Below, one piece after another: positions 5,162 to 37,548 of a stretch of 64,000 nt of DNA. The DNA is from a virus (Duplodnaviria; Caudoviricetes). The translations under genes and the position numbers were made by a program. Where the stretch lies: positions 32,001 through 96,000 of IMG/VR virus record IMGVR_UViG_3300012952_003952; one strand, written 5' to 3'. Within the stretch, counting starts at the first letter, position 1; each line of letters starts with the position of its first letter. Under the pieces are notes generated by a model. It had not been told where the DNA came from. It saw nothing but the letters and a program-made list of their open reading frames with translations, and made no database searches.

Positions 5162-5192
5162 ATGTAATAGTTATTAACTGGGAAATAAATAA

Positions 5193-14074: not shown

Positions 14075-14078
14075 TTAA

Positions 14079-14984: not shown

Positions 14985-14992
14985 AATTTAAA

Positions 14993-16821: not shown

Positions 16822-17744
16822 AAATTCATTTTTCAAATGTAAACTTTTCTTCTCGAACGGGCCCGAACTCATTCGCTAGCAGGCTAGCTGACCAATTCGA
16901 GAAAATGAATCATGACGTTATAGAAAGTGCCGATGATCAGTACGATATTTTCTTAGCATTTATAGAGCCAGCCTCACTTCCTAGAAAGGGTTCTAAATTT
17001 ATTCATAGGCTGGATGGAATATGGTTTAAACCAGAACAGTTTGAATCGCACAACAAACTTATAAAGTGGAGCTATCAAAGAGCTGATAGCGTTATCTGCA
17101 TTTCAGAGTTTAATAAAAATATGGCTGCTCACCACTGGGGATCTCGAGACAATGTCAAGGTTATAAATAACGGAATAGAGATAATTCCAGCCCCTGTTGT
17201 GAATAAGGAACTTCAGTCACGGCAACTAGAATATGATAATAGATTTATCTGTTCAGCAAATTGGCATAAACAAAAGCGCCTAAAGAGTAATATAGAATTT
17301 TTTAAAAAATTTAGAGAAGAGCATCCAGATCAAAATAGTTGTTTAGCAGTTTTAGGAAATTCACCTGATTATGTTATTGAAGACAGAGATATATGGTACG
17401 CTGGAAGCTTACCTCATGATCTATGTCTACAGCTATTCAGAGATTCTGATTGGATGCTTCACTTAGCATGGATCGATCATTGTCCAAATTCTGTTGTTGA
17501 AGCACTGTCACAAAACTGTGGAATTGTCTGCGCTGATTCAGGAGGAACAAAAGAAATTGTTGGTAATAACGGAGTGATTGTTCCGGAAATAGAACCGTAT
17601 GCGTATCAATTAGCAGATTATGATAGCCCACCAGATATCGATATATCAAAAATCGAACTCCCAGAAAATTTAGAAATAGATAACTCTATTTTAGATATTA
17701 GAAAAATAGCTGCAAGATATATCAAAGTCTTCAAGGACGCGTAA
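16818..17744 (+). CDS. Glycosyltransferase family 4
   Basis: VINNGI, WHKQKRL, DHCPNSVVEALSQNCGIVC. ATG 16818 overlaps the upstream stop (ORF track 16779). Confidence 0.88.
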   Translation: MKIHFSNVNFSSRTGPNSFASRLADQFEKMNHDVIESADDQYDIFLAFIEPASLPRKGSKFIHRLDGIWFKPEQFESHNKLIKWSYQRADSVICISEFNKNMAAHHWGSRDNVKVINNGIEIIPAPVVNKELQSRQLEYDNRFICSANWHKQKRLKSNIEFFKKFREEHPDQNSCLAVLGNSPDYVIEDRDIWYAGSLPHDLCLQLFRDSDWMLHLAWIDHCPNSVVEALSQNCGIVCADSGGTKEIVGNNGVIVPEIEPYAYQLADYDSPPDIDISKIELPENLEIDNSILDIRKIAARYIKVFKDA

Positions 17745-18595
17745 TGGGATTGGGAGGTTACTTATTTTGGACTGCTGTAGCTAGAGAAATAAGCGAAAAG
17801 TCGTTTGGAGGAAATTCTCAAATTAAGTTTCTTCCAATTGAAGCATGCAACAATGGAATAATTAAGTTAATAAAAAGCGAAATATTCGCTAATAATCCTA
17901 GATTTTTCCAAGAGTTTACCGATAGTGAGTTTGCTTTTCCTTTAGTTTTAAACAACCAGGAATTAAATTACTGTAAGAGAGATACTCCGGAAAGAGCTTA
18001 TCATCGATATGACAAGCATGTGGTTGCTCAAATTTGTGAATATTACGGAATACAAAATCCAAGAACTAACTGCGAAATATACTTTTCAGAGCAAGAAATT
18101 AATAAAACAGATAAACTGCTTGCTGGTCTAAAAGACTTTGTCGTCATTGAGCCTCAGTCTAATGATGAATATTCAAAAAATAAAGTTTACCCATTTGAAA
18201 AATGGCAAAATATAACAAACAAATTATTGGCCGAAGGAATCAGTGTAGTACAAGTGGGCAGAACGACGGGCGACAAAAATCTTTCTGGAGCTATTAATCT
18301 CACTGGCCAAACTAGTTTTAAAGAAGCTGCGCAAGTAATATCTCGTTCTAAAATGTTTATATCATCAGAAGGCGGCTTAATGCATGCAGCAAATGGCTGT
18401 GGAGTAAAATCTATAATAATTTACACCGGTTATATTCATCCAAGAATGACTGGATATTCTGAGAATATTAACATCTGGATAAACCACGGTCCTGAGCCGT
18501 GTGGAATGAAAATGAAGTGCATAGACTGCCAAACTGCAGTAGCAAACCACGACGAAAACGAAATTGTCGAACTTATTAAGGAACATTTAAAATGA
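17744..18595 (+). CDS. Glycosyltransferase family 9 (heptosyltransferase-like)
   Basis: NLTGQTSFKEAAQVISRSKMFISSEGGLMHAA matches the GT9 D/ESG.MH.A motif; adjacent to the ADP-heptose genes. Confidence 0.8.
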   Translation: MGLGGYLFWTAVAREISEKSFGGNSQIKFLPIEACNNGIIKLIKSEIFANNPRFFQEFTDSEFAFPLVLNNQELNYCKRDTPERAYHRYDKHVVAQICEYYGIQNPRTNCEIYFSEQEINKTDKLLAGLKDFVVIEPQSNDEYSKNKVYPFEKWQNITNKLLAEGISVVQVGRTTGDKNLSGAINLTGQTSFKEAAQVISRSKMFISSEGGLMHAANGCGVKSIIIYTGYIHPRMTGYSENINIWINHGPEPCGMKMKCIDCQTAVANHDENEIVELIKEHLK

Positions 18596-19554
18596 TTGTT
18601 GTTACCGGCGGATGCGGATTTATTGGATCTAGAATTTTAGAAGAGCTATTCAAGAGAGGCTATAATGAGAAAGTCGTAGTTGTAGATTATCTTAATGACG
18701 ACAATGTCAAGAAAATTTCTAAATTCTCAATCTATGATTGGATGGAGCCAGATTATTTTTTGTCTAACTCACGTAAACTAATAAAAGATGCAGATTGTAT
18801 TTTCCATCAAGGAGCAATTACTGATACTACACATCCTAATCCTAAAGAAGTTATGCGAATGAACTACAACTATACGAAAAGTTTAATTTCTTCTTGCATT
18901 GTCAATAAAACTAAAATAGTATATGCATCTTCAGCTGCAATTTATGGCCATGGCGAAAATGGATTTAAAGAAGAAGAAGATTGTGAGGCGCCTCTAAATG
19001 TTTATGGATTTTCAAAATCTCTTGTAGATAATTGGCTAAGACAAAGTAAGATTTTTTCTACAAACTATGAAATATATGGTTTGAGATATTTTAACGTTTA
19101 TGGAATGGGAGAAGAGCATAAATTAGGAATGAGTTCTCCTGTTTATAAATTTTTTAATGATGCTATATCTCTAGACAAAGACATAAAGATATTCAAGGGT
19201 TCCCATAAATTTTATAGAGATTTTGTAGCAGTAGAAGATGTAGTAAACGTAAATTTATCTTGCGCTTTTGGAGAAATAGATCCTGGAATTTATAATGTTG
19301 GATCTGGTAAAAAGATCTCTTTTAAAAAAGTAGCTAAGATAACTCAAGAACACTTCTCAGAAGAAGAAGTGGATATATCCACAATAGATTTTCCAGAAAA
19401 ATTAAAAGGTAGATATCAAGATAATACCCATGCTAATTTAGTGAAACTGAGATCAGCAGGCTATAAAGAAAAAATGATCGATCCAGAAGTTGGAATCAAG
19501 AAATATCTTTTAGATTTAGATTTGGCTAGAAAAAATGAAGACAGTATTTACTAA
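18592..19554 (+). CDS. hldD: ADP-L-glycero-D-manno-heptose 6-epimerase
   Basis: IVVTGGCGFIGS, FHQGAITDTT, YASSAAIYG, PLNVYGFSK, GLRYFNVYG, and RDFVAVED match RfaD/HldD. Confidence 0.85.
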   Translation: MIVVTGGCGFIGSRILEELFKRGYNEKVVVVDYLNDDNVKKISKFSIYDWMEPDYFLSNSRKLIKDADCIFHQGAITDTTHPNPKEVMRMNYNYTKSLISSCIVNKTKIVYASSAAIYGHGENGFKEEEDCEAPLNVYGFSKSLVDNWLRQSKIFSTNYEIYGLRYFNVYGMGEEHKLGMSSPVYKFFNDAISLDKDIKIFKGSHKFYRDFVAVEDVVNVNLSCAFGEIDPGIYNVGSGKKISFKKVAKITQEHFSEEEVDISTIDFPEKLKGRYQDNTHANLVKLRSAGYKEKMIDPEVGIKKYLLDLDLARKNEDSIY

Positions 19555-19927
19555 TGGTTGTTTCGACATTGTCCACCGGGGGCATTTAGAGCTTTTAGAA
19601 TACTGTAAAACTATTGGAGAAAAAGTTATAGTAGGAATTAATTCTGACCAAAGTGTAAGAAGTTTAAAAGGTTCAAACCGGCCGATAAACGCACAGGAAG
19701 ATAGGAAATTTCTTTTAGAGTCTTTAGTATACGTTGACGAAGTTATAGTTTTTGACGAAGAAACTCCCTTAGAGCTTATAAAAAATATAAAACCAGATAT
19801 AATTGTCAAGGGTGGTGATTATTCTCCTGAAGAAGTAGTGGGCCACAAGTTAGCTAAAGTTGTAATTTTTGAGACAGTAGATGGATATTCAACAACTAAA
19901 ATCGTTAAAAGTATTAGTGATAGGTGA
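19535..19927 (+). CDS. rfaE2: D-glycero-beta-D-manno-heptose 1-phosphate adenylyltransferase (RfaE domain II)
   Basis: VFTNGCFDIVHRGH (HxGH), GINSDQSV..LKG..RP, VKGGDY, GYSTT. Confidence 0.92.
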   Translation: MKTVFTNGCFDIVHRGHLELLEYCKTIGEKVIVGINSDQSVRSLKGSNRPINAQEDRKFLLESLVYVDEVIVFDEETPLELIKNIKPDIIVKGGDYSPEEVVGHKLAKVVIFETVDGYSTTKIVKSISDR

Positions 19928-20666
19928 AGCCTGCACAGATCGATATCATGTCGGAACATGCGATAGACTAAGCCCTGAATTCCCTGTACCTGTGTTTAAA
20001 AATAAAAAAAGTTTTGATAATCCTGGGATGGCTTCTAACGTTTTTGCTGGATTTTTAAATTTAGGAATAAGCGCCGATCTTGTATCTCAGCAGAAACCAT
20101 GCTTAAAAGAAAGATATATTGACGAAAAAACTGGATACCACTTACTAAGAGTAGATAGTTTTGACGAAGTAGAAAAACTTTCTGATTCTGAAATTAGAAA
20201 CGTAGATCTAAATCAATATTCTTGTTTAGTAATTTCTGATTACGGAAAAGGATTTTTAAGCGAAGAAATAGCTTTTTATTTAAGAGAAAATTTTAAAGGG
20301 CCAATTTTTGTAGACACAAAAAAGAAAGATCTTTCTTGCTTTTCTAATTGTATAGTGAAAATAAACGAAATAGAAAGAGCTTCACTTATAAACCCAAACC
20401 CAAAAACAAAACTTGTCACTACTTTAGGTCCTCGAGGAGCAGAATATGAGGGTGAAATTTATAGCCCCAATTTTGAAAGAAGAGTATTTGATGTTTGCGG
20501 TGCCGGAGATACTTTCTTAACTGCGCTAGTAATAGGGTATATGATGTATGGAGATGTTAGGGCTTCTATTCCACTAGCAAATTATTGCGCAGGAATAGCT
20601 GTTGAGTCTCGTGGAACTTATAAAATAACTGCCCAAGATTTACTGGAGTATAAAAATGCCATTTGA
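19881..20666 (+). CDS. rfaE1: Heptose-7-phosphate kinase (RfaE domain I, PfkB family)
   Basis: VLVIGE..D, RLSPEFPVPV, ISDYGKG, VFDVCGAGDTF. Confidence 0.88.
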   Translation: MDIQQLKSLKVLVIGEACTDRYHVGTCDRLSPEFPVPVFKNKKSFDNPGMASNVFAGFLNLGISADLVSQQKPCLKERYIDEKTGYHLLRVDSFDEVEKLSDSEIRNVDLNQYSCLVISDYGKGFLSEEIAFYLRENFKGPIFVDTKKKDLSCFSNCIVKINEIERASLINPNPKTKLVTTLGPRGAEYEGEIYSPNFERRVFDVCGAGDTFLTALVIGYMMYGDVRASIPLANYCAGIAVESRGTYKITAQDLLEYKNAI

Positions 20667-23626: not shown

Positions 23627-24444
23627 TGATTTCTGTGTATGGTTCTTCTGGGTTTATAGGTTCTAATTTCTGTAGTTTATATGCAGAAAAAATAATAAAA
23701 GTACCTAGAGATTCTAGAGAGCCATTTTCGAAAGATATTTTATATTTTATTAGTACTACCGACAACTATAGCGTATTTTCAGACCCAACCATTGATGTGA
23801 AAACTAATTTGCTAGTCCTTACAGAGACTTTGGCCTGTATCAAAGAGAAAGCTGAGACTTTTAATTTTATTAGTTCTTGGTTTGTATATGGTGAAACAGA
23901 GCTTCCAGCTAAAGAAAATTCTATTTGTTCTCCTAGAGGATTTTATTCTATTACCAAATTATGTGCTGAGCAATTAGTCGAATCATATTGTAAAACTCAT
24001 AAAATTCCTTATAGAATTATTAGACTTTGTAACGTTTATGGAAAGGGAGACCCAGGTGTTTCTAAAAAGAAAAATGCTCTGCAATTTTTAATTGAAAGAC
24101 TAAAGAAAGACGAATCAATTCAGCTTTATAACGGTGGAGACTTTGTAAGAGACTATATGCATGTTGACGATGTATCAAGAGCTATAAACTGTGTTATTGA
24201 AACAGGGCCTCTCGACTCAGTGATAAACGTTGGGTGTGGAGAGCCAATAAAATTTAAAGAGATAATAGATTTAGCAGTAAAAATTTTAGATTCAAAAAGT
24301 GAAATAACAAATATCGAGCCTCCAGACTTTCATAAACTAGTGCAAGTCAAAGACATGTATTTAGATATTGAAAAACTACGAAGCTTAAATTTTAATCCAA
24401 AAATAAAAATAGAAGAAGGTATAAAAGAGTTATGTCAAGCTTAA
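23626..24444 (+). CDS. NAD-dependent sugar epimerase/reductase (extended SDR)
   Basis: VYGSSGFIGS, YSITK (YxxxK), RLCNVYG, RDYMHVDD. Confidence 0.85.
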   Translation: MISVYGSSGFIGSNFCSLYAEKIIKVPRDSREPFSKDILYFISTTDNYSVFSDPTIDVKTNLLVLTETLACIKEKAETFNFISSWFVYGETELPAKENSICSPRGFYSITKLCAEQLVESYCKTHKIPYRIIRLCNVYGKGDPGVSKKKNALQFLIERLKKDESIQLYNGGDFVRDYMHVDDVSRAINCVIETGPLDSVINVGCGEPIKFKEIIDLAVKILDSKSEITNIEPPDFHKLVQVKDMYLDIEKLRSLNFNPKIKIEEGIKELCQA

Positions 24445-25748
24445 AAGAAAAAATCCAAGAATTCTTAAAAAGCTTAGAAACTGACGGTGGTTTACCTCAG
24501 TACATCACTGGGCCGAAAAACAAAAAGAATACCAAAATGCCGAAAGTGCTGTATTCAGGTCCTGTGTGGGATAAAGAAGAGCTTTCAGCTGCGATAGAAA
24601 CTATTGTTAGCTCAAACTGGCTAGCTTCTGGAGAAAATGTTCGAAAGTTTGAAGTTCAGTTTTCTAGATACATTGACTCTAAATTTTCTGTAATGGTTAA
24701 CTCAGGATCTTCAGCTAACTTAGCGATGATTTGCGCTTTGAAAAAACACTATGGTTGGAAAGATGGAGATGAGATCATTGTATCGTGCGTAGGTTTTCCC
24801 ACGACTATTAATCCTATAATTCAGAATAATCTAAAGCCAGTTTTTGTAGACATATCTTGGGAAGACTTAAATTGGAATTTAGATGAAGTTGAAAACAAAA
24901 TTACTGATAGGACTGTTGCTGTTATTTCTTCTCCTGTTTTAGGTAACCCCTATGATTTAGACAGGCTTTCAGAAATTTGCGAAAAGAATTCTGTTAAAAT
25001 GATTGGAGATAACTGTGACACTCTAGGCACCAAGTGGAAGGGCAAGCATTTTTCTTCTTATTTTGTGGCTAGTAGCTGTTCATTTTATCCAGCTCACCAT
25101 ATCTCCACCGGCGAAGGCGGGATGGTTTCTTCAGATAATCCAGATATTATTAAAACCGCTAGAAGTTTTGCTTGGTGGGGAAGAGATTGTTATTGCGTAG
25201 GGTCAGCAAATCTTCTCTCATGCGGAAGTTGTGGAAATAGATTTGATAAATGGCTTGACGCATATGACGGAGTAGTAGATCACAAATATATTTTTGTAAA
25301 TCAAGGCTACAATTTAAAACCTTTAGATATGCAGGGTTCAGTAGGCTCAGTTCAACTTAAAAAGCTTCCTATGATTCATGAAAAAAGAAGATATTTTAAA
25401 GCTGAAATAGAAAAAATATTAAGCCGTATCGGTGGTTTAAGAATTCCTGGTGAATTAGAAAATTCCGAAACTAGTTGGTTTGGTGTTCCGATAATATGTG
25501 AATCTGGAGATTTAAAAAGAAGGCTAGTAGATCACTTAGAAAGCTCCGGAGTTCAAACTAGAAATTATTTTGCTGGAAATATATTAATGCATCCCGCATA
25601 TTCTCACATTGATGATTATAAGAAATATCCGATAGCTTCTAAAGTTTTAGATCAAGTGTTTTTTATGGGCTGTTCTCCAAATTATACAGAAGACACTTTA
25701 GAAAAAATTTCTAGTGTCATACAAAAATTTATAGAGAATGAAAAATGA
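24432..25748 (+). CDS. rfbH: NDP-4-keto-6-deoxyglucose 3-dehydratase (E1/RfbH/DdhC family)
   Basis: SFYPAHHISTGEGG has His in place of the aminotransferase Lys. Fe-S cluster motif GRDCYC...SCGSC; DHKY, GYNLKP, TRNYFAGN. Confidence 0.85.
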   Translation: MSSLKEKIQEFLKSLETDGGLPQYITGPKNKKNTKMPKVLYSGPVWDKEELSAAIETIVSSNWLASGENVRKFEVQFSRYIDSKFSVMVNSGSSANLAMICALKKHYGWKDGDEIIVSCVGFPTTINPIIQNNLKPVFVDISWEDLNWNLDEVENKITDRTVAVISSPVLGNPYDLDRLSEICEKNSVKMIGDNCDTLGTKWKGKHFSSYFVASSCSFYPAHHISTGEGGMVSSDNPDIIKTARSFAWWGRDCYCVGSANLLSCGSCGNRFDKWLDAYDGVVDHKYIFVNQGYNLKPLDMQGSVGSVQLKKLPMIHEKRRYFKAEIEKILSRIGGLRIPGELENSETSWFGVPIICESGDLKRRLVDHLESSGVQTRNYFAGNILMHPAYSHIDDYKKYPIASKVLDQVFFMGCSPNYTEDTLEKISSVIQKFIENEK

Positions 25749-26668
25749 ACGTATTAATAACAGGTTGTGCAGGTTTTATCGGAAGCCACGCTGTAGAAGA
25801 ATTTTTATTGCATGGTCATAATGTAGTTGGAGTTGATTCTATGACTTATGCGGCCGATCGCAATAATATGTCTTCTTTTATAGATGATATAGAATTTTTC
25901 CATGCAGACATTTGTAATACTGATTTAATGAGAAAGCTAGTAGAAGAATATAAAATAGATTGGATAATAAATTTTGCTGCTGAATCTCATGTAGATAATT
26001 CCATAAAAGGATGTGAGCAGTTTATTAAATCTAATATCGTCGGAGTTAACTCTCTTTTAATGGTGTGCAAAGAATTTGAGTGCAATATACTTCATATATC
26101 GACAGATGAAGTTTATGGATCGATAAAATCAGGATCTTTTGTAGAAACTGATGTTTTAAATCCAAAAAATCCATATTCCGCCACAAAAGCTGCAGCAGAA
26201 CACTTAGTAAATTCTTATAGTAACACTTATGGAGTTCAACAGATTATCATTAGAATGAGCAACAACTTTGGCCCAAGACAGCATAGAGAAAAATTAGTGC
26301 CGACGATACTTTCTACTCTTTTATCTGGAAAAAAGATCCCAGTGTACGGCGATGGTAAAAATGTGAGAGACTGGTTTTATGTAAAAGACAGCGTAAAAAT
26401 GGTGTATAAAGTTTTTGATAATGGATCTCTTGGAGAAATATACAACTTGACTCACTGCAATGAGATGACTAATTTAGAAATTATAAACACAATATGCGAG
26501 CTTTGCGATAAAAATCCTGAAGCTAATATAGAATTTGTTAAAGACCGCCCTGGCCATGATTTCAGATATTCTATTTCTAATAAAAAAGTTAAACTGCTTG
26601 GAATCGATAAACCAACAGATTTTCGTGAAGCAGTAAAACAAACAATAGACGCTTGGAGAAAAAAATGA
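25745..26668 (+). CDS. rmlB: Second NDP-glucose 4,6-dehydratase (RmlB-like)
   Basis: ITGCAGFIGSH, FAAESHVDNSI, ISTDEVYG, NPYSATK, RDWFYVKD. Confidence 0.85.
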   Translation: MNVLITGCAGFIGSHAVEEFLLHGHNVVGVDSMTYAADRNNMSSFIDDIEFFHADICNTDLMRKLVEEYKIDWIINFAAESHVDNSIKGCEQFIKSNIVGVNSLLMVCKEFECNILHISTDEVYGSIKSGSFVETDVLNPKNPYSATKAAAEHLVNSYSNTYGVQQIIIRMSNNFGPRQHREKLVPTILSTLLSGKKIPVYGDGKNVRDWFYVKDSVKMVYKVFDNGSLGEIYNLTHCNEMTNLEIINTICELCDKNPEANIEFVKDRPGHDFRYSISNKKVKLLGIDKPTDFREAVKQTIDAWRKK

Positions 26669-27810
26669 AAAATTATCCTCTGTTTAAAGTCCATTTAGAT
26701 ACTGAAGATGTCTTATCTAGACTAAGAAAAGTGTTTGATTCAGGTATTATAAATGAAGGCGCACAAGTAACAGAGTTAACTGAAAAGCTTTGTAAAAATC
26801 TAGAAACAGAAAATTTAGTTTTGGTTAATTCTTGCACCAGCGCTATAGCTATGGCACTAAAACTATCAGGTGTAAATCCAGGTGATGAAGTAATCTCAAC
26901 TTCAATGACATGCGTAGCTACTAACTCAGTAATAAGCTGGCTAGGTGCAAAAGTAGTCTGGGCAGATATCGATAGTCAAACTGGAAACATAGACCCTTCA
27001 GAGATAGAAAGTAAGATAACAGAAAAAACTAAAGCTGTAATATGCGTCGATTGGTCAGGTATACCTTGCAAGTTTAAAGAATTGCAAGCTGTTTGTCGAA
27101 AAAATAAAATCAAGTTAATCCAAGATGCTGCCCATGCATTTGGTAGCCTGTATGAAGGTAAACCAGTTTGCCACTACTCGGATTATACTTGCTATAGCTT
27201 TCAAGCCATTAAGCACTTTACAACTGGCGATGGTGGTGCGATAGTTTGCTTGAATGATGATGACGTACCACGAGCTCGAGCAATGAAATGGTATGGTTTT
27301 GACAGAAAAACTTTGAAAGATAAAGATGGAAACTGGAAAGGTCGTCGCTGGAATGTCGACATTCAAGAGATTGGATCTAAGTTTAACATGAATAATATTT
27401 CTGCAGTAATGGGAATTTCTAATCTAGACCACGCAGATAAAATTGTGCGCCAGCATAAATCTAACGCAGCTGTTTATAATAAACTGCTAGAAAGCAATGA
27501 AGATGTCAAGCCGTTGTTGGTGGACAAAAATATGGATCCAGCTTATTGGATTTATACTATAGTATTATCTGGCGGAATAGATCGAGAAAAACTGATAGAA
27601 AATCTTAAGCTTAAAGGTGTTCACACAGATACTGTGCATGTCCCAAATCACCCCTACGATTGTTTTTCTGATAGTTTTTGTAAGTTACCTCAAACAGAAT
27701 ATTTCGGGGACAGACAGCTTTGTCTGCCTTGCGGCTGGTGGCTTAATGAACAAGACATAGAAGACATTTATAATATTTTAATAAGCACTATAGAAACAGC
27801 TAGGGTCTAA
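26665..27810 (+). CDS. DegT/DnrJ/EryC1/StrS sugar aminotransferase
   Basis: VNSCTSA, IQDAAHAFG, SFQAIKHFTTGDGG (PLP lysine present). The ORF track starts at 26653. Confidence 0.9.
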   Translation: MKNYPLFKVHLDTEDVLSRLRKVFDSGIINEGAQVTELTEKLCKNLETENLVLVNSCTSAIAMALKLSGVNPGDEVISTSMTCVATNSVISWLGAKVVWADIDSQTGNIDPSEIESKITEKTKAVICVDWSGIPCKFKELQAVCRKNKIKLIQDAAHAFGSLYEGKPVCHYSDYTCYSFQAIKHFTTGDGGAIVCLNDDDVPRARAMKWYGFDRKTLKDKDGNWKGRRWNVDIQEIGSKFNMNNISAVMGISNLDHADKIVRQHKSNAAVYNKLLESNEDVKPLLVDKNMDPAYWIYTIVLSGGIDREKLIENLKLKGVHTDTVHVPNHPYDCFSDSFCKLPQTEYFGDRQLCLPCGWWLNEQDIEDIYNILISTIETARV

Positions 27811-29364: not shown

Positions 29365-29961
29365 ATGAGTGTTTGCGTAGTTGGTAATTCTGGAAATTTA
29401 CTAGATGAAGAGATGGGATCAAAAATAGATTCTTGCGATGTGGTAATAAGAATACAAAAGTTTAGAACAAAAGGTCTTGAAGTTCATGTAGGTTCGAAGA
29501 CTACTGTGGTTGCTTTTGCATGGTGTAGCCCTGATAAGATAAGAGATTGGACAAACTATGCCTCTATAAATCTAGAAGAAGTTACTCTTTGGAGCACGTT
29601 CCCCCTTCAAGGCAGGAGATATAATACGGCAATGGAAATCCTCGGTCACACGAATATTTTGCAGCCTAATCCAGAGTCTTATCAAAAAATTATAAATGAT
29701 CTCTATTCTGATTTTTGGATAAAAAAGCCAAGCTCTGGTATTTCTAGTTTGATGCTGGCTATGGAGCAATTTCCAGATCATGATATCTACATTTGCGGTT
29801 TTGATGACAAAATTGAAAAAGACCATTATTATGACGCTACCCATATAGACAAGCTTGATCCAGGAATGACGGTTTCTGGACACAATTGGGAAGCTGAATG
29901 GAAGTATATTGGTGGTCTTTTACGCTCTGGAAAAATATCACATATCAGGGAAAAGAAATGA
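29365..29961 (+). CDS. GT29 sialyltransferase-like protein, soluble
   Basis: Sialylmotif L CVVGNSGNL...GSKIDSCDVVIR, motif S PSSGISSLMLAM...IYICGF, motif III HYYD, motif VS HNWEAE (H-x4-E). No TM anchor. The ORF track starts at 29326. Confidence 0.85.
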   Translation: MSVCVVGNSGNLLDEEMGSKIDSCDVVIRIQKFRTKGLEVHVGSKTTVVAFAWCSPDKIRDWTNYASINLEEVTLWSTFPLQGRRYNTAMEILGHTNILQPNPESYQKIINDLYSDFWIKKPSSGISSLMLAMEQFPDHDIYICGFDDKIEKDHYYDATHIDKLDPGMTVSGHNWEAEWKYIGGLLRSGKISHIREKK

Positions 29962-30932
29962 AGAAGATAGAAACAGTTCCTATAGACTTAATACGAATAG
30001 ACTTAAGAGACGATATTAATTTAAGAACTTACGTTCTTTTAAAAAGAGCAAGACAGCTTTATTTAGCTTTCTGCCAAGGCCTCAAAAATTACGGTTTAAA
30101 TCCAAAATCTTATGAAGCATTTCTAGATTTATATCAAGATATTAGAGTAAATGGAATTGATATTCCCATAAAAGCTCAAAAAATAAATGGACAATATTAT
30201 GTTGAAGACGGTGCGCATAGGCTGTCTATAGCTCGAGCACTTGGAATGTCAACAATAAAGGTTGAAATAGTAACAAATTGTGGAATACCTTCAGTGTTCA
30301 TAGCAGCTCCTAGAACCATTAGTACGCCATTCAATGTTGACACTAATAATCCAAGAATTTTAAAAATGTTCGAGACCATCAGCCACGGCGAAGTTGAAAA
30401 GTTTGTTAATTTAAACATACCTACCGACCAAGAAAAAATTCCAATGACAGGTGCTGCTGTCTTCTGGCCGACATGCTACAGCTTATGGCCAGAAATGTTA
30501 GAAGAAGTTAAAAGATTTCACAAAGTAAAAAAAGTTTTAGAAATAGATTGCAAAGACGAATCAACGCATCAGTCTATGATATTAGATTTTTATAAGTCTG
30601 ATGATGTTGCTCCTTGGAAAGTGGAAGCAAAATTCCCTTACTGTTCTCAAGCCCCAAGAAAATTTTTGTTGATAGAATTTAATATTGAAGATGCTAGACA
30701 TAGAATTAAAGGAAAAACAGGAAATGAAATCTCTATGGCTATAGAAGACTTAAAGGGGTATGTACGTTCAAATTATAGATCTAGAGTTCCAAACTACCCA
30801 ACAAATGGAACACCAGATCTATTGATTCATGCTGGAGATAATGAATATCAAACTGGAGAAATTTTAAAAACTCCAGAGAGATTTAAAGATAAAGACGGAG
30901 TGGAGATTAAACCCTATGGAAATGTTTCTTAA
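29958..30932 (+). CDS. ParB/Srx-like domain fused to a putative NDK-like domain
   Basis: YYVEDGAHRLSIARALG (ParB/Srx GxHR motif). C-half AVFWPT...LIHAGDN resembles the NDK IKPD...HGSD spacing. The ORF track starts at 29898. Confidence 0.65.
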   Translation: MKKIETVPIDLIRIDLRDDINLRTYVLLKRARQLYLAFCQGLKNYGLNPKSYEAFLDLYQDIRVNGIDIPIKAQKINGQYYVEDGAHRLSIARALGMSTIKVEIVTNCGIPSVFIAAPRTISTPFNVDTNNPRILKMFETISHGEVEKFVNLNIPTDQEKIPMTGAAVFWPTCYSLWPEMLEEVKRFHKVKKVLEIDCKDESTHQSMILDFYKSDDVAPWKVEAKFPYCSQAPRKFLLIEFNIEDARHRIKGKTGNEISMAIEDLKGYVRSNYRSRVPNYPTNGTPDLLIHAGDNEYQTGEILKTPERFKDKDGVEIKPYGNVS

Positions 30933-31532: not shown

Positions 31533-32180
31533 ATGTACTGGTTTGTTATTCCTGCTCGAAAAGGCTCTAAAGAATTCCCATTCAAGAATAGAAAGCTTTT
31601 CAAATATACTGCTGATATAATTCCAAAGCACTTGAAAAATCAAGTTGTAGTTTCTTCTGACGACGAAAAAATTTTAGAGCTCTCTGAAGATTATAATTTT
31701 AAAACTTTGAAAAGAGAAGAAAAGTTAGCTACGGATACAGCCAACACTAGAGATGTTCTTATAGACGTAGTAGAAAAACTTAAAATACCAAAAGAAGACT
31801 TTGTTGTCCTTCTATATCTTGTTTATCCAGATCGAAAGTGGGCTGATATTGCAAGAGGAATGTCTTTTATAGAAGAAAAAAATGCTTCTTCTCTTCTTTG
31901 CAGAAAAGAAATAGAACTTACTCCATATTTGATGATGTTTGAAGAAGAAGACAATAAAGCTACGAAAGTTATTAACCACGATCTTTCCAGAAGGCAAGAT
32001 TATAGAAAGTGTTTTTCTTTATCACACTACGTTGCAATATTCAAGTCTAAAGAATTATATTTGCTCGATACAAATCTATGGAACAGAGATACAATATTTC
32101 TATCGATAGATTCTTGGGTTGACATAGACACAAGAGAAAATCTTGATGATTTTTTAGGCAACAATGAAGTTAGTAGATAA
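31533..32180 (+). CDS. neuA: CMP-nonulosonate synthetase (acylneuraminate cytidylyltransferase family)
   Basis: FVIPARKGSK...KN, VVSSDD, R...LATD, VDIDT..D. Confidence 0.85.
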   Translation: MYWFVIPARKGSKEFPFKNRKLFKYTADIIPKHLKNQVVVSSDDEKILELSEDYNFKTLKREEKLATDTANTRDVLIDVVEKLKIPKEDFVVLLYLVYPDRKWADIARGMSFIEEKNASSLLCRKEIELTPYLMMFEEEDNKATKVINHDLSRRQDYRKCFSLSHYVAIFKSKELYLLDTNLWNRDTIFLSIDSWVDIDTRENLDDFLGNNEVSR

Positions 32181-32880
32181 AAATGCTCTCGTTACAGGAG
32201 CCACTGGAGGCTTAGGCAAAGAAATAGCTTTGTCTCTTGCTGCATCTGGATGCAGAGTTTTTATCACTGGAAGAAATAAAAAAGATTTAGAAAGTTTAGC
32301 TAATAATCTCGGACCATTATGTTTAGGCCACCTTGTTTCTGATTTAGAGCAAGAAAAAGAAATAGAGTTATTAGCTATAGCAGCCAATAGAGCGGCTAAT
32401 TTTAAATCTGGGGTTATTGATATTCTAATCAATTGTGCTGGAGTTTTTCCAGTTGGAGAAGTTTTAAATACTTCTTTTGAAGATTTTAACTCTTGCTTTA
32501 ATATTAATGTAAGAGCTCCATTTTTTCTTTCTAAATTACTTTATCCAAACATGAAGTCTTCCAAATGGGGAAGAATTGTTAACGTTGGTTCTTCTTCTGC
32601 GTATGGTGGTTTTGCTGGAACTTCTGTTTACTGTGCTTCTAAACATGCGCTTTTAGGAGCTTCTAGAGCGATGTATAACGAATTTAAAGAAAGCGGAGTA
32701 CGGGTGTTTTCTGTTTCTCCTGGTTCTATTCAGACACCAATGGGAAAGAAAGTACTAAACCAAGATTACTCTACTTTTATGAGCCCTGCTGAAATATCTA
32801 AGTTTATTTGTGAATTAATTTCTTACGACTCAAACATGATAGCAGAAGAGATTAGGCTTAACAGGGTTATTATCAGATGA
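32164..32880 (+). CDS. Classical SDR oxidoreductase
   Basis: VTGATGGLG, INCAGV, YCASK. Confidence 0.9.
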   Translation: MKLVDKNALVTGATGGLGKEIALSLAASGCRVFITGRNKKDLESLANNLGPLCLGHLVSDLEQEKEIELLAIAANRAANFKSGVIDILINCAGVFPVGEVLNTSFEDFNSCFNINVRAPFFLSKLLYPNMKSSKWGRIVNVGSSSAYGGFAGTSVYCASKHALLGASRAMYNEFKESGVRVFSVSPGSIQTPMGKKVLNQDYSTFMSPAEISKFICELISYDSNMIAEEIRLNRVIIR

Positions 32881-33653
32881 GCTATTTAGAAAAAATGTTT
32901 TCTCTAGACAATAAAGTCGCAATAGTTACTGGAGCAGCAAGAGGAAATGGCAAAGCGATAGCTGAAGGTTTATTAAAAGCAGGCGCTAAAGTTTATATAG
33001 TTGATATTTTAGAGCAGACACTAAAGACTTGTTCAGATTTCAAGAGCGCTGGTTTTACTAAAGTCGAATATGAAATTTTAGATTTGTCTGATTTTAAAAA
33101 ATTGGAATCTTTCATAGATAAAGTTTATTCTGAAAACAAAAGAATAGATATTCTAGTTAATAATGCAGGAGTATCTTACTCGAAAGATACGCTAAGCTAT
33201 CCAGAAGCAATGTGGGATTATACCCATGCCATTAATTTAAAAGCGCCTTATAAATTATCAAAACTAGTTTCTCGATATATGATTAAAGGCGGAGGTGGAT
33301 CTATTATTAATATCACTAGTTTAAATTCTGAGCTAGCTTTTCCAAACAATCCAGCATATGTTGCTTCGAAAGGAGCTTTAAAACAGCTTACTAAATCTTT
33401 TGCCTTAGACTTAGGAAAGTTTAATATAAGGTGTAACAACGTTGGTCCAGGTTACATGAAAACAGAAATGAATAAAGTAAGTTGGAAAGATTTAGAAAAG
33501 AGAAAAGCTAGATCAGATAAAACCGTTTTAGGTCGTTGGGGAGACCCAGAAGATTTATCCGGCTTAGTGGTGTTTTTAAGTTCGGATTCATCGAGCTACA
33601 TTACCGGACAAGACATATACGTGGACGGTGGATGGCTCATAAAAGGTATATAG
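32877..33653 (+). CDS. Classical SDR oxidoreductase
   Basis: VTGAARGNG, VNNAG, YVASK, GPGYMKT, ITGQDIYVDGG. Confidence 0.9.
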   Translation: MSYLEKMFSLDNKVAIVTGAARGNGKAIAEGLLKAGAKVYIVDILEQTLKTCSDFKSAGFTKVEYEILDLSDFKKLESFIDKVYSENKRIDILVNNAGVSYSKDTLSYPEAMWDYTHAINLKAPYKLSKLVSRYMIKGGGGSIINITSLNSELAFPNNPAYVASKGALKQLTKSFALDLGKFNIRCNNVGPGYMKTEMNKVSWKDLEKRKARSDKTVLGRWGDPEDLSGLVVFLSSDSSSYITGQDIYVDGGWLIKGI

Positions 33654-33654
33654 A

Positions 33655-34116
33655 ATGAACGAAAAAGAATATAGCGAAGGCGAATATGGCAATCCAGATT
33701 TAATGTGGGCCGACAATTGTCATGACGCCGTAGAAATATCTGGTAAGAAAGTTGCTTTTTTCTGTGATTCTACTTGTATTGTGTGCACCATGTGTTCTAA
33801 TATAGCTCCAAACAATTTTAGGTTAAGCGATAATGCAGATCACGATATATGCTACAGCCAGCCAAAAGATGAAGAAGAGCTAGATAAATGCTATGAAGCT
33901 CTAACGAATTGTCCAGTTGGAGCTATCGGCCATAATGCTTTTGATAGAAAAGAAGAAATGACTAAAGCTTTCCCCATCGGCCATCGCTTTGCACCTACAA
34001 AATATGATGGAAATGGAAACCTTATAGATCCCACTATGAAATCTTCAGGTACTAGAGAGTATTTAGGATCTACAAAAAAGTCTTTTTGGACTAAGTTTAT
34101 GGGGTGGATTAAATGA
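33655..34116 (+). CDS. Single-cluster ferredoxin with terminal extensions
   Basis: CIVCTMC...AP..F...CPVGAIG (CxxCxxC...CP). Confidence 0.85.
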   Translation: MNEKEYSEGEYGNPDLMWADNCHDAVEISGKKVAFFCDSTCIVCTMCSNIAPNNFRLSDNADHDICYSQPKDEEELDKCYEALTNCPVGAIGHNAFDRKEEMTKAFPIGHRFAPTKYDGNGNLIDPTMKSSGTREYLGSTKKSFWTKFMGWIK

Positions 34117-34158: not shown

Positions 34159-35898
34159 ATGACAAAAAAAGCTAAAGTAATGTTTGTTAACCCGATAGTG
34201 GGTGTAGATGAGGGTGTATTGCCTATGGGGCCTGGTATATTAGTTGCAGGCTTGAGACAGGAAGGCCACACAGTAAAAGTATTTGATACCACCCAGTGGA
34301 AGATAGTTTCCGGCCATAGATCATCCGACCACGGCCCGAAAGAAATTAACGAAAAGTACCTTAACTTTGTTCCTGTTACCGCCGGCCATAAAGTTCCTCC
34401 AAAAGTTGTTAAGACAGAAGATGAAGTACTAAATTTATTTCGTGATACAGTCAAAGAGTTTAATCCAGACGTAATTGCTTTTACGGTTCTCTGTAGCCAT
34501 AACTGGGGAATGACAAAACTTCTCATGGAGCGCGCTGGAAAAACTAACGCTAAAGTAATTTTAGGCGGAAAGCATATTATAACAATGGGCAAGGAGCTCA
34601 TACAGACTCCATGGGTTGACGCATGTTGTTTAGGAGATGGAGAGTTAGCTCTTCCTGAATTCGTAAATAATGTTATAAATGGAGAAGACTATAGCAAAAC
34701 TTTAAATCTATCAGTTAAAATAGACGGAAAAATAATTCAGAACCCTCTAGACAAGCTAAACAGAATGGAAGACATTCCGTTTCCAGATTGGACCGATTAC
34801 GATGACAGGCTATTTTATAAGCCTCTTCGTGGCAGAATGTACCGTTATGGATATGTAGAAATAAGCAGAGGTTGCCCATTTAGATGCCCATATTGTCACA
34901 ATGAAAAAGAGCACGATATTTTTGCGGGTCTTGGAAAATTCATGAGGAATAAGCCGATTCCGAAAGTTATTGAAGAGCTGCAATGGATGAAAGACACGTA
35001 TGGAATCGAGATAGTTAAATTTTTAGATGAAGAATTTTTAGCTAAGCCAAAAAAATATCTTAAAGAGTTTGCCAAAGAGTATAAAAAGTTAAACCTCCCG
35101 TTCTTGCTAATGTGTCGACCAGAAAGAATGACTAAAGAAAATGCTGAAATGTTAGCAGACATGGGCTGCGTGCAAGCTTCTATTGGAGTTGAGTCTGGAA
35201 ACGAGTATATCAGAAAAGAAATTTATAAGCGAGGAATGGACAACGAAGTCATGATTCAGGGCTTTAAGAATTTTAGAGATGCTGGAATTTGTACTACTTC
35301 GCTAAACATGATCGGTGGACCATACGAAGATGCAGAAATGATTTTTGATACCATCGAACTTAATAGACATTTGAAAGCTGATGATGTACTTTGTAGTGTT
35401 TTCCAACCATATCGTGGTACTTCTCTTAGAGACCTTTGTATTAAAGAAGGGTTTATGACCGATGATGAAGAGTGCGAAGAAACGACGTTGGAAAATTCAG
35501 TCCTTACAATGCCTCAAATTACGCATGAAGAAATTTGGGGGTTTAGAAGAACGTTTGCTCTTTATATAAGAGCGCCCAAGATTCTTTATCCATTAATTGG
35601 GCTTTACCGCAAGTGGGATAATAAATTTACTCGAATGATTTTCAATGTTCTTTCTAAGCGTTATGGAAAACGAAATGGAGTAACGTACGTCGGCCACGGT
35701 GGAAATGGCAGAGGCTGGACCGAGCGACCTTTTGCTGAAGAAACAGAAAAGCAAGCTCAACTTAGAAAAAAGAAAGAAATGTTTATAGACTATGAGCAGT
35801 CTACTGAATTTACAAAGGGCTATGGCGACCTGTCCCAGCAAGATTGGGAAAAGATTCAGCATTTGGCACAGAAAAAAGAAGAAGCTTCAGCAAAATAA
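34159..35898 (+). CDS. Cobalamin-binding radical SAM enzyme (class B methyltransferase-like)
   Basis: N-terminal B12-binding-like domain (ILGGKH...GDGE), SRGCPFRCPYC, FLDEEF, GVESG. Confidence 0.88.
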   Translation: MTKKAKVMFVNPIVGVDEGVLPMGPGILVAGLRQEGHTVKVFDTTQWKIVSGHRSSDHGPKEINEKYLNFVPVTAGHKVPPKVVKTEDEVLNLFRDTVKEFNPDVIAFTVLCSHNWGMTKLLMERAGKTNAKVILGGKHIITMGKELIQTPWVDACCLGDGELALPEFVNNVINGEDYSKTLNLSVKIDGKIIQNPLDKLNRMEDIPFPDWTDYDDRLFYKPLRGRMYRYGYVEISRGCPFRCPYCHNEKEHDIFAGLGKFMRNKPIPKVIEELQWMKDTYGIEIVKFLDEEFLAKPKKYLKEFAKEYKKLNLPFLLMCRPERMTKENAEMLADMGCVQASIGVESGNEYIRKEIYKRGMDNEVMIQGFKNFRDAGICTTSLNMIGGPYEDAEMIFDTIELNRHLKADDVLCSVFQPYRGTSLRDLCIKEGFMTDDEECEETTLENSVLTMPQITHEEIWGFRRTFALYIRAPKILYPLIGLYRKWDNKFTRMIFNVLSKRYGKRNGVTYVGHGGNGRGWTERPFAEETEKQAQLRKKKEMFIDYEQSTEFTKGYGDLSQQDWEKIQHLAQKKEEASAK

Positions 35899-35997: not shown

Positions 35998-36861
35998 ATG
36001 TTTAATCCTTATAGGTCTAATAGACCCAACCCATTCATTATTGCTGAAGTGGGAATTAATCATAATGGTGATATAGATTTAGCAAAAAAGCTTATTGATG
36101 TTGCTGTTGATTCTGGTTGCGACGCTGTAAAGTTTCAAAAGAGAGACGTAGAAACAGTGTACACAGAAAAATATTTAGACGGTCATCGAGAAAGCCCTTG
36201 GGGAACTACTCAAAGAGAACAAAAAGAAGGCTTAGAGTTTTCTAAAGAACAATATGAAGAAATAGACAGGTACTGTAAGTCTCAAGGAATTATGTGGACA
36301 GCTTCTGCTTGGGATGAAAAGAGTCAAGATTTTATAAATGAAATGAACGTACCTTTTAATAAGGTTGCTTCTGCGATGGTTACGAAAATAGACTTCTTAG
36401 AAAAAGTAGCCGCTGAAGGAAAGCATGCTTTTGTTTCTACTGGGATGTGCACGATGTCAGATATTGATAAGGCTGTAAAAGTCTTCAAGTCTGCCGGCTG
36501 TCCTTTTACTCTTTTCCACACAGTTTCGACATATCCTTGTAACGATGTTGATTGTAACGTAAAAATGATAGAAACACTTCAAGAAGTGTATGGTTGTCCA
36601 GTTGGATATAGCGGTCACGAACGAGGCTTGCTGCCTTCTATCTTGGCAGTTTCTCTTGGGGCTGTAGCTTTAGAAAGACACATCACGCTTGACCGTACAA
36701 TGTATGGATCAGATCAATCAGCTTCTCTAGAGCCAGAAGGTTTACGTAGACTAGTGAGAGATACGCGCCACGTAAGAGCAACTATGGGAACTGGAGAAAA
36801 GACATATTCTTCAGAAGAGAGGCAAGTTTCAGAAAAGTTGAGGTATTTTGAAAGTGAGTGA
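35998..36861 (+). CDS. neuB: Nonulosonate (sialic acid/KDN-type) synthase lacking the C-terminal SAF/AFP domain
   Basis: IIAEVGINHNGD, AVKFQK, HTVSTYP, GYSGHE, ERHITLDR..YGSDQSASLEP. The ORF track starts at 35986. Confidence 0.92.
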   Translation: MFNPYRSNRPNPFIIAEVGINHNGDIDLAKKLIDVAVDSGCDAVKFQKRDVETVYTEKYLDGHRESPWGTTQREQKEGLEFSKEQYEEIDRYCKSQGIMWTASAWDEKSQDFINEMNVPFNKVASAMVTKIDFLEKVAAEGKHAFVSTGMCTMSDIDKAVKVFKSAGCPFTLFHTVSTYPCNDVDCNVKMIETLQEVYGCPVGYSGHERGLLPSILAVSLGAVALERHITLDRTMYGSDQSASLEPEGLRRLVRDTRHVRATMGTGEKTYSSEERQVSEKLRYFESE

Positions 36862-37243
36862 AAAGGAAGCTAGATTTCTTCCTAGAAAAACCAAGCTAGA
36901 CATGACTCATGTTGATAAAGGCTGGGGCTGGGAGAGGTGGATTTGTAATGGTCCAGAATATTGTGGAAAACTTTTATTTTTTAATGAAGGCAAACGTTGT
37001 TCTTGGCATGTGCATAGATTGAAAGATGAAGTCTTTTATCTTCAGTCTGGAAAGATGATGATATACTATTCAGAAGACGATGATCTAACCACCGCTAATC
37101 AACTAGTACTTCTTCCTGGCGAAAATTTTCATGTTTATCGAGGGCTAAGACATCAAATGGTCGCGCTAGAAGATAGCGAACTGTTCGAATTCTCAACTCA
37201 GCACTTTGATAGTGATAGCTACAGAATTATAAAGGGTGATTAA
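36848..37243 (+). CDS. Cupin sugar(-phosphate) isomerase (PMI/lyxose-isomerase-like)
   Basis: VDKGWGWE.W, CSWHVH..KDEVFY, RHQM..LEDS.LFEFST cupin metal motifs. Confidence 0.75.
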   Translation: MKVSEKEARFLPRKTKLDMTHVDKGWGWERWICNGPEYCGKLLFFNEGKRCSWHVHRLKDEVFYLQSGKMMIYYSEDDDLTTANQLVLLPGENFHVYRGLRHQMVALEDSELFEFSTQHFDSDSYRIIKGD

Positions 37244-37548
37244 TGATTTATTACGTAGATATCGATGAGACAATATGCGAATACGAAGAGGGAAAGAGAG
37301 AATATCCTCTAGCAAATCCAGTCAAAAAAAATATTAAAAAGATAAACAGCCTTTATGATGCTGGTCATACCATTGTGTATTGGACAGCTAGAGGAGCGAC
37401 TACGGGTATTGATTGGACAGACTTAACTTTAACCCAACTAAAAGAATGGGGAGCTAAATATACGGAAGCTAAATTGGGAAAACCCAATTATGATGTCTTT
37501 ATATGCGATAAGGCTATAAACACTTTAGATTTTTTTAATGGTGAATAA
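37243..37548 (+). CDS. Minimal HAD phosphatase (capsule-biosynthesis phosphatase-like)
   Basis: VDIDETIC (DxDxT), YWTARG, GKP..D.FICDKA. Confidence 0.8.
   Translation: MIYYVDIDETICEYEEGKREYPLANPVKKNIKKINSLYDAGHTIVYWTARGATTGIDWTDLTLTQLKEWGAKYTEAKLGKPNYDVFICDKAINTLDFFNGE

Follow-up and report, generated by a model that had tools for sequence, protein, structure and literature searches.

The closest described route to an acidic sugar of the kind considered here is the CMP-Kdn pathway of Bacteroides thetaiotaomicron (BT1713-BT1715) and Prymnesium parvum, in which a NeuB-family synthase acts on an aldose phosphate (BT1714 and P. parvum use Man-6-P), a HAD phosphatase and CMP activation follow, and there is no NeuC (PMC6200933). 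A SAF-less NeuB is also found in the Streptomyces teichulosonic-acid locus SCO4873-SCO4882 (SCO4880 NeuA, SCO4881 NeuB; PMC3479208, PMC13011467). The polymer contains Kdn. The ADP-L-glycero-beta-D-manno-heptose pathway (GmhA, HldE, GmhB, HldD) has a cyanophage form (T4-GC 304-308 in P-SSM2, S-SM2 and S-SSM7, with the same genes in S-CAM3), while the AfhF/RB69 gp51 phosphatase of T4-like phages removes the terminal phosphate of arabinose-1,5-bisphosphate and serves UDP-arabinose synthesis for DNA modification (PMC13326640; PDB 9iqw). Finally, mass spectrometry of Magnetospirillum gryphiswaldense shows that CMP-activated ulosonic acids with a C10 marker fragment exist and have no assigned pathway (PMC8157484; bioRxiv 10.64898/2026.04.20.719630). 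That compound carries two N-acetyl groups and a Leg/Pse-like redox state, and we have no evidence that it comes from the cassette described below.

Three overlapping genes in a phage glycan island

We analysed a 64,000-nucleotide stretch of DNA (hereafter the window; positions 32,001 to 96,000 of IMG/VR record IMGVR_UViG_3300012952_003952) from a giant marine bacteriophage. The record is a linear 242-kb fragment of a T4-like jumbo phage, estimated by CheckV to be 57% complete. A search of sequencing runs listed one marine metagenome that holds the stretch and may be its source, and no RNA dataset. A sequence-only reading of the window had described a triplet of overlapping genes for a SAF-less NeuB, a cupin and a minimal HAD phosphatase without NeuC, and this observation was confirmed. 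The relevant genes are as follows.

17744..18595 (+), GT9 heptosyltransferase-family gene of the heptose branch (Glyco_transf_9 E 1e-15)
18592..19554 (+), HldD, ADP-glycero-manno-heptose 6-epimerase of the heptose branch (TIGR02197 303.8 bits, above the 274.6 cut-off)
19535..19927 (+), HldE domain II / HldC heptose-1-P adenylyltransferase of the heptose branch (TIGR02199 E 3e-48, below cut-off; phrog_7878)
19881..20666 (+), HldE domain I / HldA heptose-7-P kinase of the heptose branch (TIGR02198 E 4e-35, below cut-off; phrog_8133)
29365..29961 (+), GT29 (sialyltransferase-family) glycosyltransferase, candidate acceptor step (Glyco_transf_29 E 6e-19); GT29 precedes NeuA-NeuB in several related phages
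31533..32180 (+), NeuA-type CMP-ulosonate synthetase (PseF model E 2e-16, below cut-off); closest relatives sit beside NeuB in related phages
32164..32880 (+), SDR oxidoreductase 1 (tailoring; adh_short); best relatives, 47-58% identical, lie in phage NeuB loci of this clade
32877..33653 (+), SDR oxidoreductase 2 (tailoring; adh_short_C2); best relatives, 53-59% identical, lie in phage NeuB loci of this clade
33655..34116 (+), ferredoxin, probable electron donor to the radical SAM enzyme (Fer4_13 E 2e-12); no relative in the other loci fetched
34159..35898 (+), B12-binding radical SAM protein (Radical_SAM and B12-binding), possible methyltransferase, with no link to this pathway shown; best relatives 31-35% in two cellular loci of the NeuB clade
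35998..36861 (+), SAF-less NeuB-family synthase (287 aa), probable aldose-phosphate + PEP condensing enzyme
36854..37243 (+), metal-binding cupin (129 aa), probable sedoheptulose-7-P isomerase and stand-in for GmhA
37243..37548 (+), capless HAD phosphatase (101 aa), AfhF/RB69 gp51 family; probable omega-phosphatase for the ulosonate phosphate, possibly also for heptose-1,7-bisphosphate

The NeuB gene starts at an ATG after a GGAG site. Its product matches Pfam NeuB (PF03102) at E 1e-72 over residues 36-272 (244.6 bits against a cut-off of 22.1) and ends 5 residues after a conserved KLRYF end, with no SAF domain. The model is a TIM barrel matching 6ncs and 1xuu (Foldseek TM 0.82-0.84), and the metal and PEP ligands of N. 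meningitidis NeuB are retained: E17, H207, E226, H228 and D239 align with E25, H215, E234, H236 and D247, and the K53, Q55 and K129 equivalents are also kept. The protein does not, however, qualify as a bacterial Neu5Ac, Leg or Pse synthase, since it scores far below the NeuB_NnaB (255.8 against 399.65 bits) and PseI (191 against 340.25 bits) cut-offs, the position of E134 is Met127, and without a SAF domain there is no R314 equivalent from it (PMC8208679). Long SAF-bearing NeuBs form the outgroup in our trees. An ordinary Neu/Leg/Pse synthase using an unphosphorylated amino sugar or ManNAc-6-P, supplied by the host or by a gene in the unsequenced part of the genome, is therefore very unlikely, although the island does have DegT-type aminotransferases and dehydratases.

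The cupin is read from a GTG (a TTG at 36848 is possible), overlaps the NeuB stop by 8 nt and matches phrog_7851 at E 2e-56; H52, E59 and H100 are invariant, and H54 is kept in at least 90%, of 31 homologues. It is not a SIS-fold protein and can only be an analogue of GmhA. Fold searches could not name its substrate, the top rows (CapF, KdgF, auxin-binding protein, phosphomannose isomerase (PMI), D-lyxose isomerase) differing by little. The HAD shares one base with the cupin stop (TAATG), and the next ATG follows at 37549. It matches phrog_1238 at E 3e-26 and PDB 9iqw at E 6.5e-10, and is 37% identical to RB69 gp51 over 98 residues. All motifs but one are kept: D6, D8 and K80 are invariant, T48 and D89 are each found in 137 of 139 relatives, and the first Asp of motif IV (D88) is Cys here, as in 33 of 139. 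None of the DNA-modification context of AfhF is in this island. The phage label 'phosphoheptose isomerase' sits on the HAD, which has phosphatase motifs, and the labels on the cupin ('nucleotidyltransferase', 'cysteine dioxygenase') are not supported.

The sequence-only reading had itself proposed a search for neuC, gmhA and gmhB elsewhere in the genome, and had named a co-regulated neuC elsewhere as evidence against its view. Profile searches of the 242-kb record returned no match to PF02350 (NeuC/WecB), TIGR00441 (GmhA), TIGR00213 (GmhB) or TIGR01670 (KdsC); the HAD itself gave only a weak match to EcbF-BcbF (E 0.006). Since the record is a fragment, absence from the whole virus is not shown, but a complete 293-kb close relative also has no PF02350 or GmhA match, and no linked hydrolysing UDP-sugar 2-epimerase (NeuC/LegG) was found in the complete relative G574. 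The earlier reading did not state that this is a phage, where a missing precursor gene means little by itself, and we did not take the lack of neuC as evidence by itself, relying instead on cellular loci and a complete relative. The adjacency of the genes is not chance: NeuB-cupin adjacency recurs in relatives at 80-89% NeuB identity, and the full NeuB-cupin-HAD order recurs at 62-64% (locus L281).

Gene neighbourhoods of the NeuB clade and the cupin

In a maximum-likelihood tree the window's NeuB lies in a clade of its own ('c135'; support 100/99), apart from the actinobacterial (Streptomyces-type) Kdn-linked and phage Kdn-type groups. The actinobacterial SAF-less NeuBs, which sit beside a NeuA-KdsC fusion, are 46-51% identical to it and share the same SGHE and C-terminal basic end. 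They are SCO4881 orthologues. The clade swaps two tyrosines of the sugar-side loop for Gln/Asn (Gln/Gln in place of Tyr/Tyr in the window's protein), and a GmhA match was found in only 3 of the 12 actinobacterial genomes against about 54 of 73 for this clade. Of the Kdn-linked synthases only the Streptomyces-type group was compared; BT1714 and the P. parvum enzyme were not placed in the tree, and attempts to reach BT1714, by gene order from locus L270 and through a 'Muribaculaceae' genome, gave other loci (from L270, other NeuB-NeuA-KdsC loci). Genome G320 was left out of all trees and sequence comparisons.

In 80 cellular loci of this NeuB group we found a GmhA-like protein in 35 (21 within 600 bp of NeuB; 7 as KdsC-GmhA fusions) and a KdsC/BT1713-type phosphatase in 44, but HldE-I and NeuC in only 1 each, the latter within a separate block. 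The small HAD was found in 8 loci and together with KdsC in 1; it replaces KdsC nearly exclusively. The GmhA-like proteins keep the GmhA motifs but score below the TIGR00441 cut-off (160-202 against 209) and may have shifted substrate. Of 30 such draft genomes, 11 have neither HldE-I nor GmhB (HddA-type kinases were not searched in the cellular genomes), while 10 of 38 draft genomes of the clade without a local GmhA show none elsewhere. These neighbourhoods, together with the adjacent HAD and the NeuA 3.8 kb upstream in the window, lend good support to a NeuC-independent, phosphorylated route.

In phages, the cupin and HAD take the slots of GmhA and KdsC. The cupin was found in 23 of 38 dereplicated phage loci of this clade, compared with 2 of 16 Kdn-type and 0 of 10 intermediate loci (Fisher p 0.002, uncorrected for kinship). 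GmhA was found in 2 of the 38, never together with the cupin, and HldE-I in 1, while 13 have neither isomerase. Four of the 38 loci carry both types of NeuB, which suggests different products. The cupin recurs in at least four separate phage lineages of the clade, and islands seen from flank to flank (contigs G534 and G567) hold NeuB, cupin and HAD without HldE. Cassettes with the same gene order end either in GmhA (locus L310) or in cupin (L292, L298). A tree that includes cupin-seeded loci was not used for rates, which were taken only from this NeuB-seeded set and from the flank-seeded set below.

The cupin also fills the GmhA slot of ADP-heptose modules. Four of four complete cyanophages (P-SSM2, S-SM2, S-CAM3 and S-SSM7) have HldE-I, HldE-II, HldD, HAD and cupin, and no GmhA or NeuB; the window's cupin and HAD are 54-70% and 42-54% identical, respectively, to the cyanophage genes. 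In 28 contigs of the window's lineage picked by an unrelated flanking gene, the cupin is on all 9 with HldE and on none of the other 19. That it is a fixed island gene unrelated to content was rejected, as strong copies lie on only 9 of these 28 contigs. Weak 'GmhA' hits of 60-110 bits in phage islands are a different, divergent SIS protein and were not counted. The cupin tree does not split by context, and the window's clade (0.98) holds NeuB-adjacent and HldE-adjacent copies, for example that of locus L037 at 80% identity. The window has its own heptose module at 17744-20666, with split HldE, HldD and GT9, but here GmhA and GmhB are replaced by unrelated folds, and the cupin-HAD pair lies 17 kb away and is coupled to NeuB.

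None of the 9 HldE contigs has NeuB, and in G574 a HAD-cupin fusion follows a different (Kdn-type) NeuB, so the slot outlasted a NeuB swap. It might therefore be argued that the cupin and HAD serve only the ADP-heptose branch, their place after NeuB being an accident of island shuffling, with NeuB drawing its substrate from the host. We consider this unlikely because close relatives keep NeuB-cupin adjacency in whole islands that lack HldE, because the enrichment is clade-specific in at least four lineages, and because the window's HAD lies outside the main HldE-linked HAD clade (1.00, n=39) and among NeuB-adjacent HADs.

A candidate route to a ten-carbon ulosonic acid

The interpretation offered by the sequence-only reading, in which the cupin makes mannose-6-P, NeuB makes KDN-9-P, the HAD dephosphorylates it, NeuA activates it and GT29 transfers it, was supported in part. 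The phosphorylated route is supported, as is its stated alternative that cupin and HAD stand in for the missing GmhA and GmhB of the heptose pathway; mannose-6-P and KDN are not supported as first choice. The two alternatives instead merge. In our preferred model the triplet is the isomerase-synthase-phosphatase core of a phosphorylated ulosonic-acid pathway, the phage version of the cellular GmhA-KdsC-short-NeuB cassette. The cupin would isomerise host sedoheptulose-7-P to D-glycero-D-manno-heptose-7-P, the GmhA reaction (a likely step), and this product would also feed the HldE/HldD/GT9 branch. NeuB would then condense it with PEP to a 3-deoxy-dec-2-ulosonate 10-phosphate, i.e. KDN-9-P lengthened by one carbon; that its substrate is an aldose phosphate is very likely, but that this is heptose-7-P is only about as likely as not. 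The HAD would probably remove the terminal phosphate, and may also perform the GmhB step, as no other candidate was found in the record. NeuA would make the CMP-sugar, the two SDRs (perhaps also the B12 radical SAM enzyme) would tailor it, and GT29 would transfer it to an acceptor that is not known, most likely virion proteins or the host surface. The SDRs belong to the same cassette, so the end product is probably modified further. In comparison with the CMP-Kdn pathway, the phosphatase is AfhF-type rather than KdsC-type, there is a dedicated isomerase, and two SDRs tailor the product. What the analysis demonstrates are the genes, folds, conserved catalytic residues, tree position and co-occurrence; every reaction is inferred, no enzyme having been assayed, and the model as a whole, which rests on guilt by association, is about as likely as not to be correct.

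KDN is not excluded, but is the less likely product. In its favour, the nearest characterised logic is the Kdn route, the NeuB is 46-51% identical to the actinobacterial SAF-less NeuBs that sit beside a NeuA-KdsC fusion, and two complete phages (G572, G575) carry the cupin with Kdn-type NeuB only, and no HldE, HldD over cut-off or GHMP kinase; in G572 the cupin lies just upstream of a GDP-mannose dehydratase pair, which suits a mannose-6-P role. Conversion of Fru-6-P to Man-6-P and of S7P to heptose-7-P are stereochemically the same reaction, so one enzyme may do both. As to whether the cupin is itself a type II PMI, no PF01050 hit was listed at E<=1, residues 358-433 of TIGR01479 (the PMI domain) were matched weakly at E 0.004, and the fold match to Thermococcus PMI (Z 14.2, rmsd 2.1, 106 aligned) was tied with many other cupins, which does not settle the point either way; formation of KDN-9-P from Man-6-P and PEP was not measured. 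Against KDN, Kdn-type NeuBs mostly do without the cupin while this clade mostly has it, cells pair the clade with a GmhA-type rather than a PMI-type isomerase, the clade is separate with different loop residues and coexists with Kdn-type NeuB in four islands, and the cupin is required in heptose modules where HldD needs a heptose.

It is also possible, though unlikely, that the aldose phosphate is another one: arabinose-5-P (Kdo type), an epimeric hexose or heptose phosphate, or an octose phosphate. The HAD's characterised relative acts in an arabinose-phosphate pathway, a ketose-phosphate 3-epimerase-like TIM barrel that could change the substrate is in 35/80 cellular and 13/80 phage loci, and split transketolase genes occur in some. 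However, the window has neither the TIM epimerase nor an island transketolase, and the isomerase partner in cells is GmhA-type rather than KdsD-type. Replacement of KdsA (Kdo-8-P synthase) by the short NeuB in Gastranaerophilales-type loci was considered and rejected, since all five genomes tested with a related NeuB-KdsC pair have KdsA over cut-off.

No sugar of the exact structure proposed is reported in the papers searched, and we found no paper on a cupin heptose isomerase, on GmhA with NeuB, or on cyanophage heptose genes, although the reach of that literature search means this is not proof of novelty. A broader reading, held tentatively and rated slightly less likely than not, is that this NeuB clade, spread over many bacterial phyla, archaea and marine jumbo phages, is a family of 3-deoxy-deculosonate-10-phosphate synthases fed with heptose-7-P. 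In this view phages rebuilt the cassette several times with their own cupin isomerase and AfhF-type phosphatase, and this phage splits one heptose-7-P pool between ADP-heptose and a CMP-activated ten-carbon acid for its own glycans.

The Kdo (C8) and sialic-acid/KDN (C9) series has no assigned C10 pathway, although C10 marker ions have been reported without one. The phage data give a second, independent pointer, in that two unrelated isomerase folds (SIS GmhA in cells, cupin in phages) each serve both the heptose pathway and this NeuB clade. This turns a vague 'KDN-like' label on thousands of short NeuBs into a three-enzyme test with small, soluble-looking proteins. It would also establish a new fold for the GmhA reaction, correct phage annotations in which the gene labelled phosphoheptose isomerase is the phosphatase, and show that marine jumbo phages make their own acidic glycans. 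If the product proves to be KDN, the result is still a phage-encoded phosphorylated route with two non-orthologous replacements.

The phage glycan island and its overlapping triplet

The window lies in a 241,978-base IMG/VR virus record, which is linear and has a CheckV completeness of 57%. Two Gp23 capsid genes and baseplate wedge genes make it a T4-like jumbo phage, and its only full holder among sequencing runs is a marine metagenome. The capsid genes, which lie outside the window (record positions 139110-142965), are a tandem pair of closely similar Gp23-type major capsid genes (636 and 627 aa), followed by two similar large ORFs, probably sheath genes, at 146705 and 149929. About 25 short to medium ORFs beginning with the same basic N-terminal motif (MKITKRQL-like) form two arrays at record positions 8334-17095 and 230125-232278. 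A second small cluster, also outside the window (record positions 190355-197323), contains an inositol-1-phosphate-synthase-like ORF (by its N-terminus), a HAD-like ORF, an NAD-dependent epimerase, a thymidine-kinase-like ORF and a second, distant cupin (66 bits), and is possibly a nucleotide- or DNA-modification module. Within the window, the region from about 11.4 to 47.5 kb is one co-oriented glycan island between a PhoH-like gene and an exonuclease-like gene, followed by baseplate genes. The features of the window considered here are as follows.

5775-11165, a 1796-aa Ser/Gly-rich repetitive ORF directly upstream of the island, fibre-like and a candidate acceptor for the glycans
17744-20666, GT9, HldD (over the profile cut-off), HldE-II and HldE-I
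21524-27810, a dTDP/CDP deoxy- and amino-sugar block with FdtA-like cupin, RmlB-like, RmlA, RfbH-like and DegT-type genes
29958-30932, a 324-aa ORF between GT29 and NeuA with weak ParB-like PHROG matches in its N-terminal part and no explained function
32164-33653, two SDRs
35998-36861, NeuB, without a SAF domain
36854-37243, the cupin
37243-37548, the HAD

The sequence-only reading had described a triplet of overlapping NeuB, cupin and HAD genes without NeuC, and this observation is confirmed as described: the three genes overlap by 8 and 1 bases. That reading had also asked whether neuC, gmhA or gmhB might be present elsewhere in the genome, and searches of the whole record for NeuC/WecB, GmhA, GmhB and KdsC gave nothing.

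The synthase clade and its cellular partners

The synthase keeps the metal and PEP ligands of Neisseria meningitidis NeuB but scores far below the NeuB_NnaB and PseI models, and the E134 position is Met (residue roles from PMC8208679). At least 8,000 relatives of similar length exist. A 216-sequence tree and a 45-sequence maximum-likelihood tree place it in a clade which we call c135 (support 100/99), apart from two other groups: actinobacterial SAF-less NeuBs next to a NeuA-KdsC fusion, which we take to be the SCO4881 type, and a phage group that shares their signature. BT1714, the Prymnesium parvum enzyme and NANS were not included in the tree. The two other groups have tyrosines at positions 72 and 75 (numbering of the window's NeuB) of the sugar-side loop and Trp at 236, while c135 mostly has Gln or Asn, Gln and Tyr; that these substitutions enlarge the pocket is a guess. 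Four of 38 phage loci hold both types of NeuB.

In 80 cellular loci from many bacterial phyla and archaea, the partners of this clade are NeuA (56), a KdsC/BT1713-type phosphatase (44), a GmhA-like isomerase (35), a TIM-barrel epimerase (35), aminotransferases and SDR pairs, with HldE-I and NeuC each occurring once. GmhA lies within 600 bases of NeuB in 21 loci, and in 7 loci it is fused to KdsC. These proteins keep the GmhA motifs but fall just under the TIGR00441 cut-off. Of 30 such genomes, all of which are drafts, 11 show neither HldE-I nor GmhB, and several with HldE have a second GmhA. Of 38 clade genomes without a local GmhA, 19 have a strong one elsewhere, 9 a weak one and 10 none, while 3 of 12 actinobacterial controls have one. 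On this basis, we infer that the clade works on an aldose phosphate supplied by a GmhA-type isomerase and finished by a phosphatase.

In L249 and L268 (loci of uncultured Eubacterium) the short NeuB copies have degenerate active-site motifs, with the conserved Gln and the GSDQ motif altered, and lie in a housekeeping context; they are possible pseudo-enzymes. In five further loci (L262, L267, L269, L270 and L275) a NeuB-KdsC pair with no NeuA or isomerase nearby occupies a conserved housekeeping site in Gastranaerophilales-type genomes, L270 being titled Muribaculaceae but having the same gene order. These genomes have KdsA, so the pair does not replace it.

The HAD and the cupin

The HAD has intact catalytic motifs and is 37% identical to RB69 gp51, whose aligned part equals PDB 9iqw. 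Its counterpart AfhF removes the terminal phosphate of arabinose-1,5-bisphosphate (PMC13326640). In cells the HAD stands where KdsC is missing: the two are found in 8 and 44 loci, respectively, alone or together, and both in only 1. In phages it accompanies both NeuB types (19/38 c135 loci and 12/16 Kdn-type loci). A separate HAD clade (support 1.00) is tied to HldE, and the window's HAD is outside it, among NeuB-adjacent copies and a few HldE-linked ones. It fits an ulosonate-phosphate phosphatase that may double as GmhB.

The cupin has a His-His-Glu-His metal site and a cupin fold. Structure does not name its substrate, and it is the context that points to a role as a probable GmhA analogue. 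Four complete cultured cyanophages carry the cupin with HAD, HldE-I, HldE-II and HldD, and have no GmhA and no NeuB. In 28 contigs of the window's lineage, chosen by an unrelated flanking gene, it is on all 9 with HldE and none of the other 19, which include one Kdn-type and three long-NeuB islands. In NeuB-seeded phage loci it goes with c135 (23/38), seldom with Kdn-type NeuB alone (2/16), and never with GmhA, although the p-values ignore kinship. Only 9 of 49 NeuB-bearing phage records have HldE-I, while 36 have a strong cupin. Close relatives keep the NeuB-cupin adjacency in whole islands without HldE, and cassettes of equal order end in GmhA in one virus and in the cupin in others. The pairing arose in at least four phage lineages, and the cupin tree does not split by context.

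Two complete phages, however, have the cupin with only a Kdn-type NeuB and no heptose kinase, in one case beside GDP-mannose dehydratase genes. The cupin may therefore also make Man-6-P, and KDN, the product favoured by the sequence-only reading, stays possible, if less likely. In the complete relative G574, HAD and cupin are fused into one 237-aa protein directly after a Kdn-type NeuB (positions 3022-3735 of its locus L401), but this phage also has HldE; cupin-containing proteins of 223-225 aa also appear among the homologues. A divergent SIS protein with a HAD-like ORF and a CTP_transf_3 gene recurs in islands of this phage lineage, with or without NeuB (locus L032, positions 3494-5182, and the islands of genomes G630, G640 and G648), and represents a separate, unexplained module. 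Among the control genomes, Caulobacter vibrioides matches the HldE-I and GmhB models but neither TIGR00441 nor the phage cupin, so it may use a third kind of sedoheptulose-7-P isomerase.

A possible heptose-fed route to a ten-carbon acid

The triplet is real, conserved and non-canonical. The interpretation offered by the sequence-only reading is partly supported, in that a phosphorylated route is very likely, whereas KDN as its product is not the favoured outcome. The pathway logic is already known from the Bacteroides and Prymnesium Kdn route (PMC6200933), but membership of that family is not supported by tree position, for which only the Streptomyces-type group was compared. C10 ulosonic acids have been seen by mass spectrometry without a pathway (PMC8157484; SugarBase preprint), but that compound is an amino sugar and is not linked to this cassette.

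The genes, their conserved motifs, tree positions and co-occurrence are what our analysis shows; no activity is shown, and the reactions are inferred from these associations. We infer that two unrelated isomerase folds each serve both the heptose pathway and this NeuB clade, for which the simplest common product is D-glycero-D-manno-heptose-7-P. A NeuB condensation with PEP adds three carbons (established mechanism), which would give a ten-carbon 3-deoxy-ulosonate phosphate, an outcome that we consider about as likely as not. The two SDRs belong to the same cassette, so the sugar that is transferred, to an acceptor not identified here, is probably modified further.
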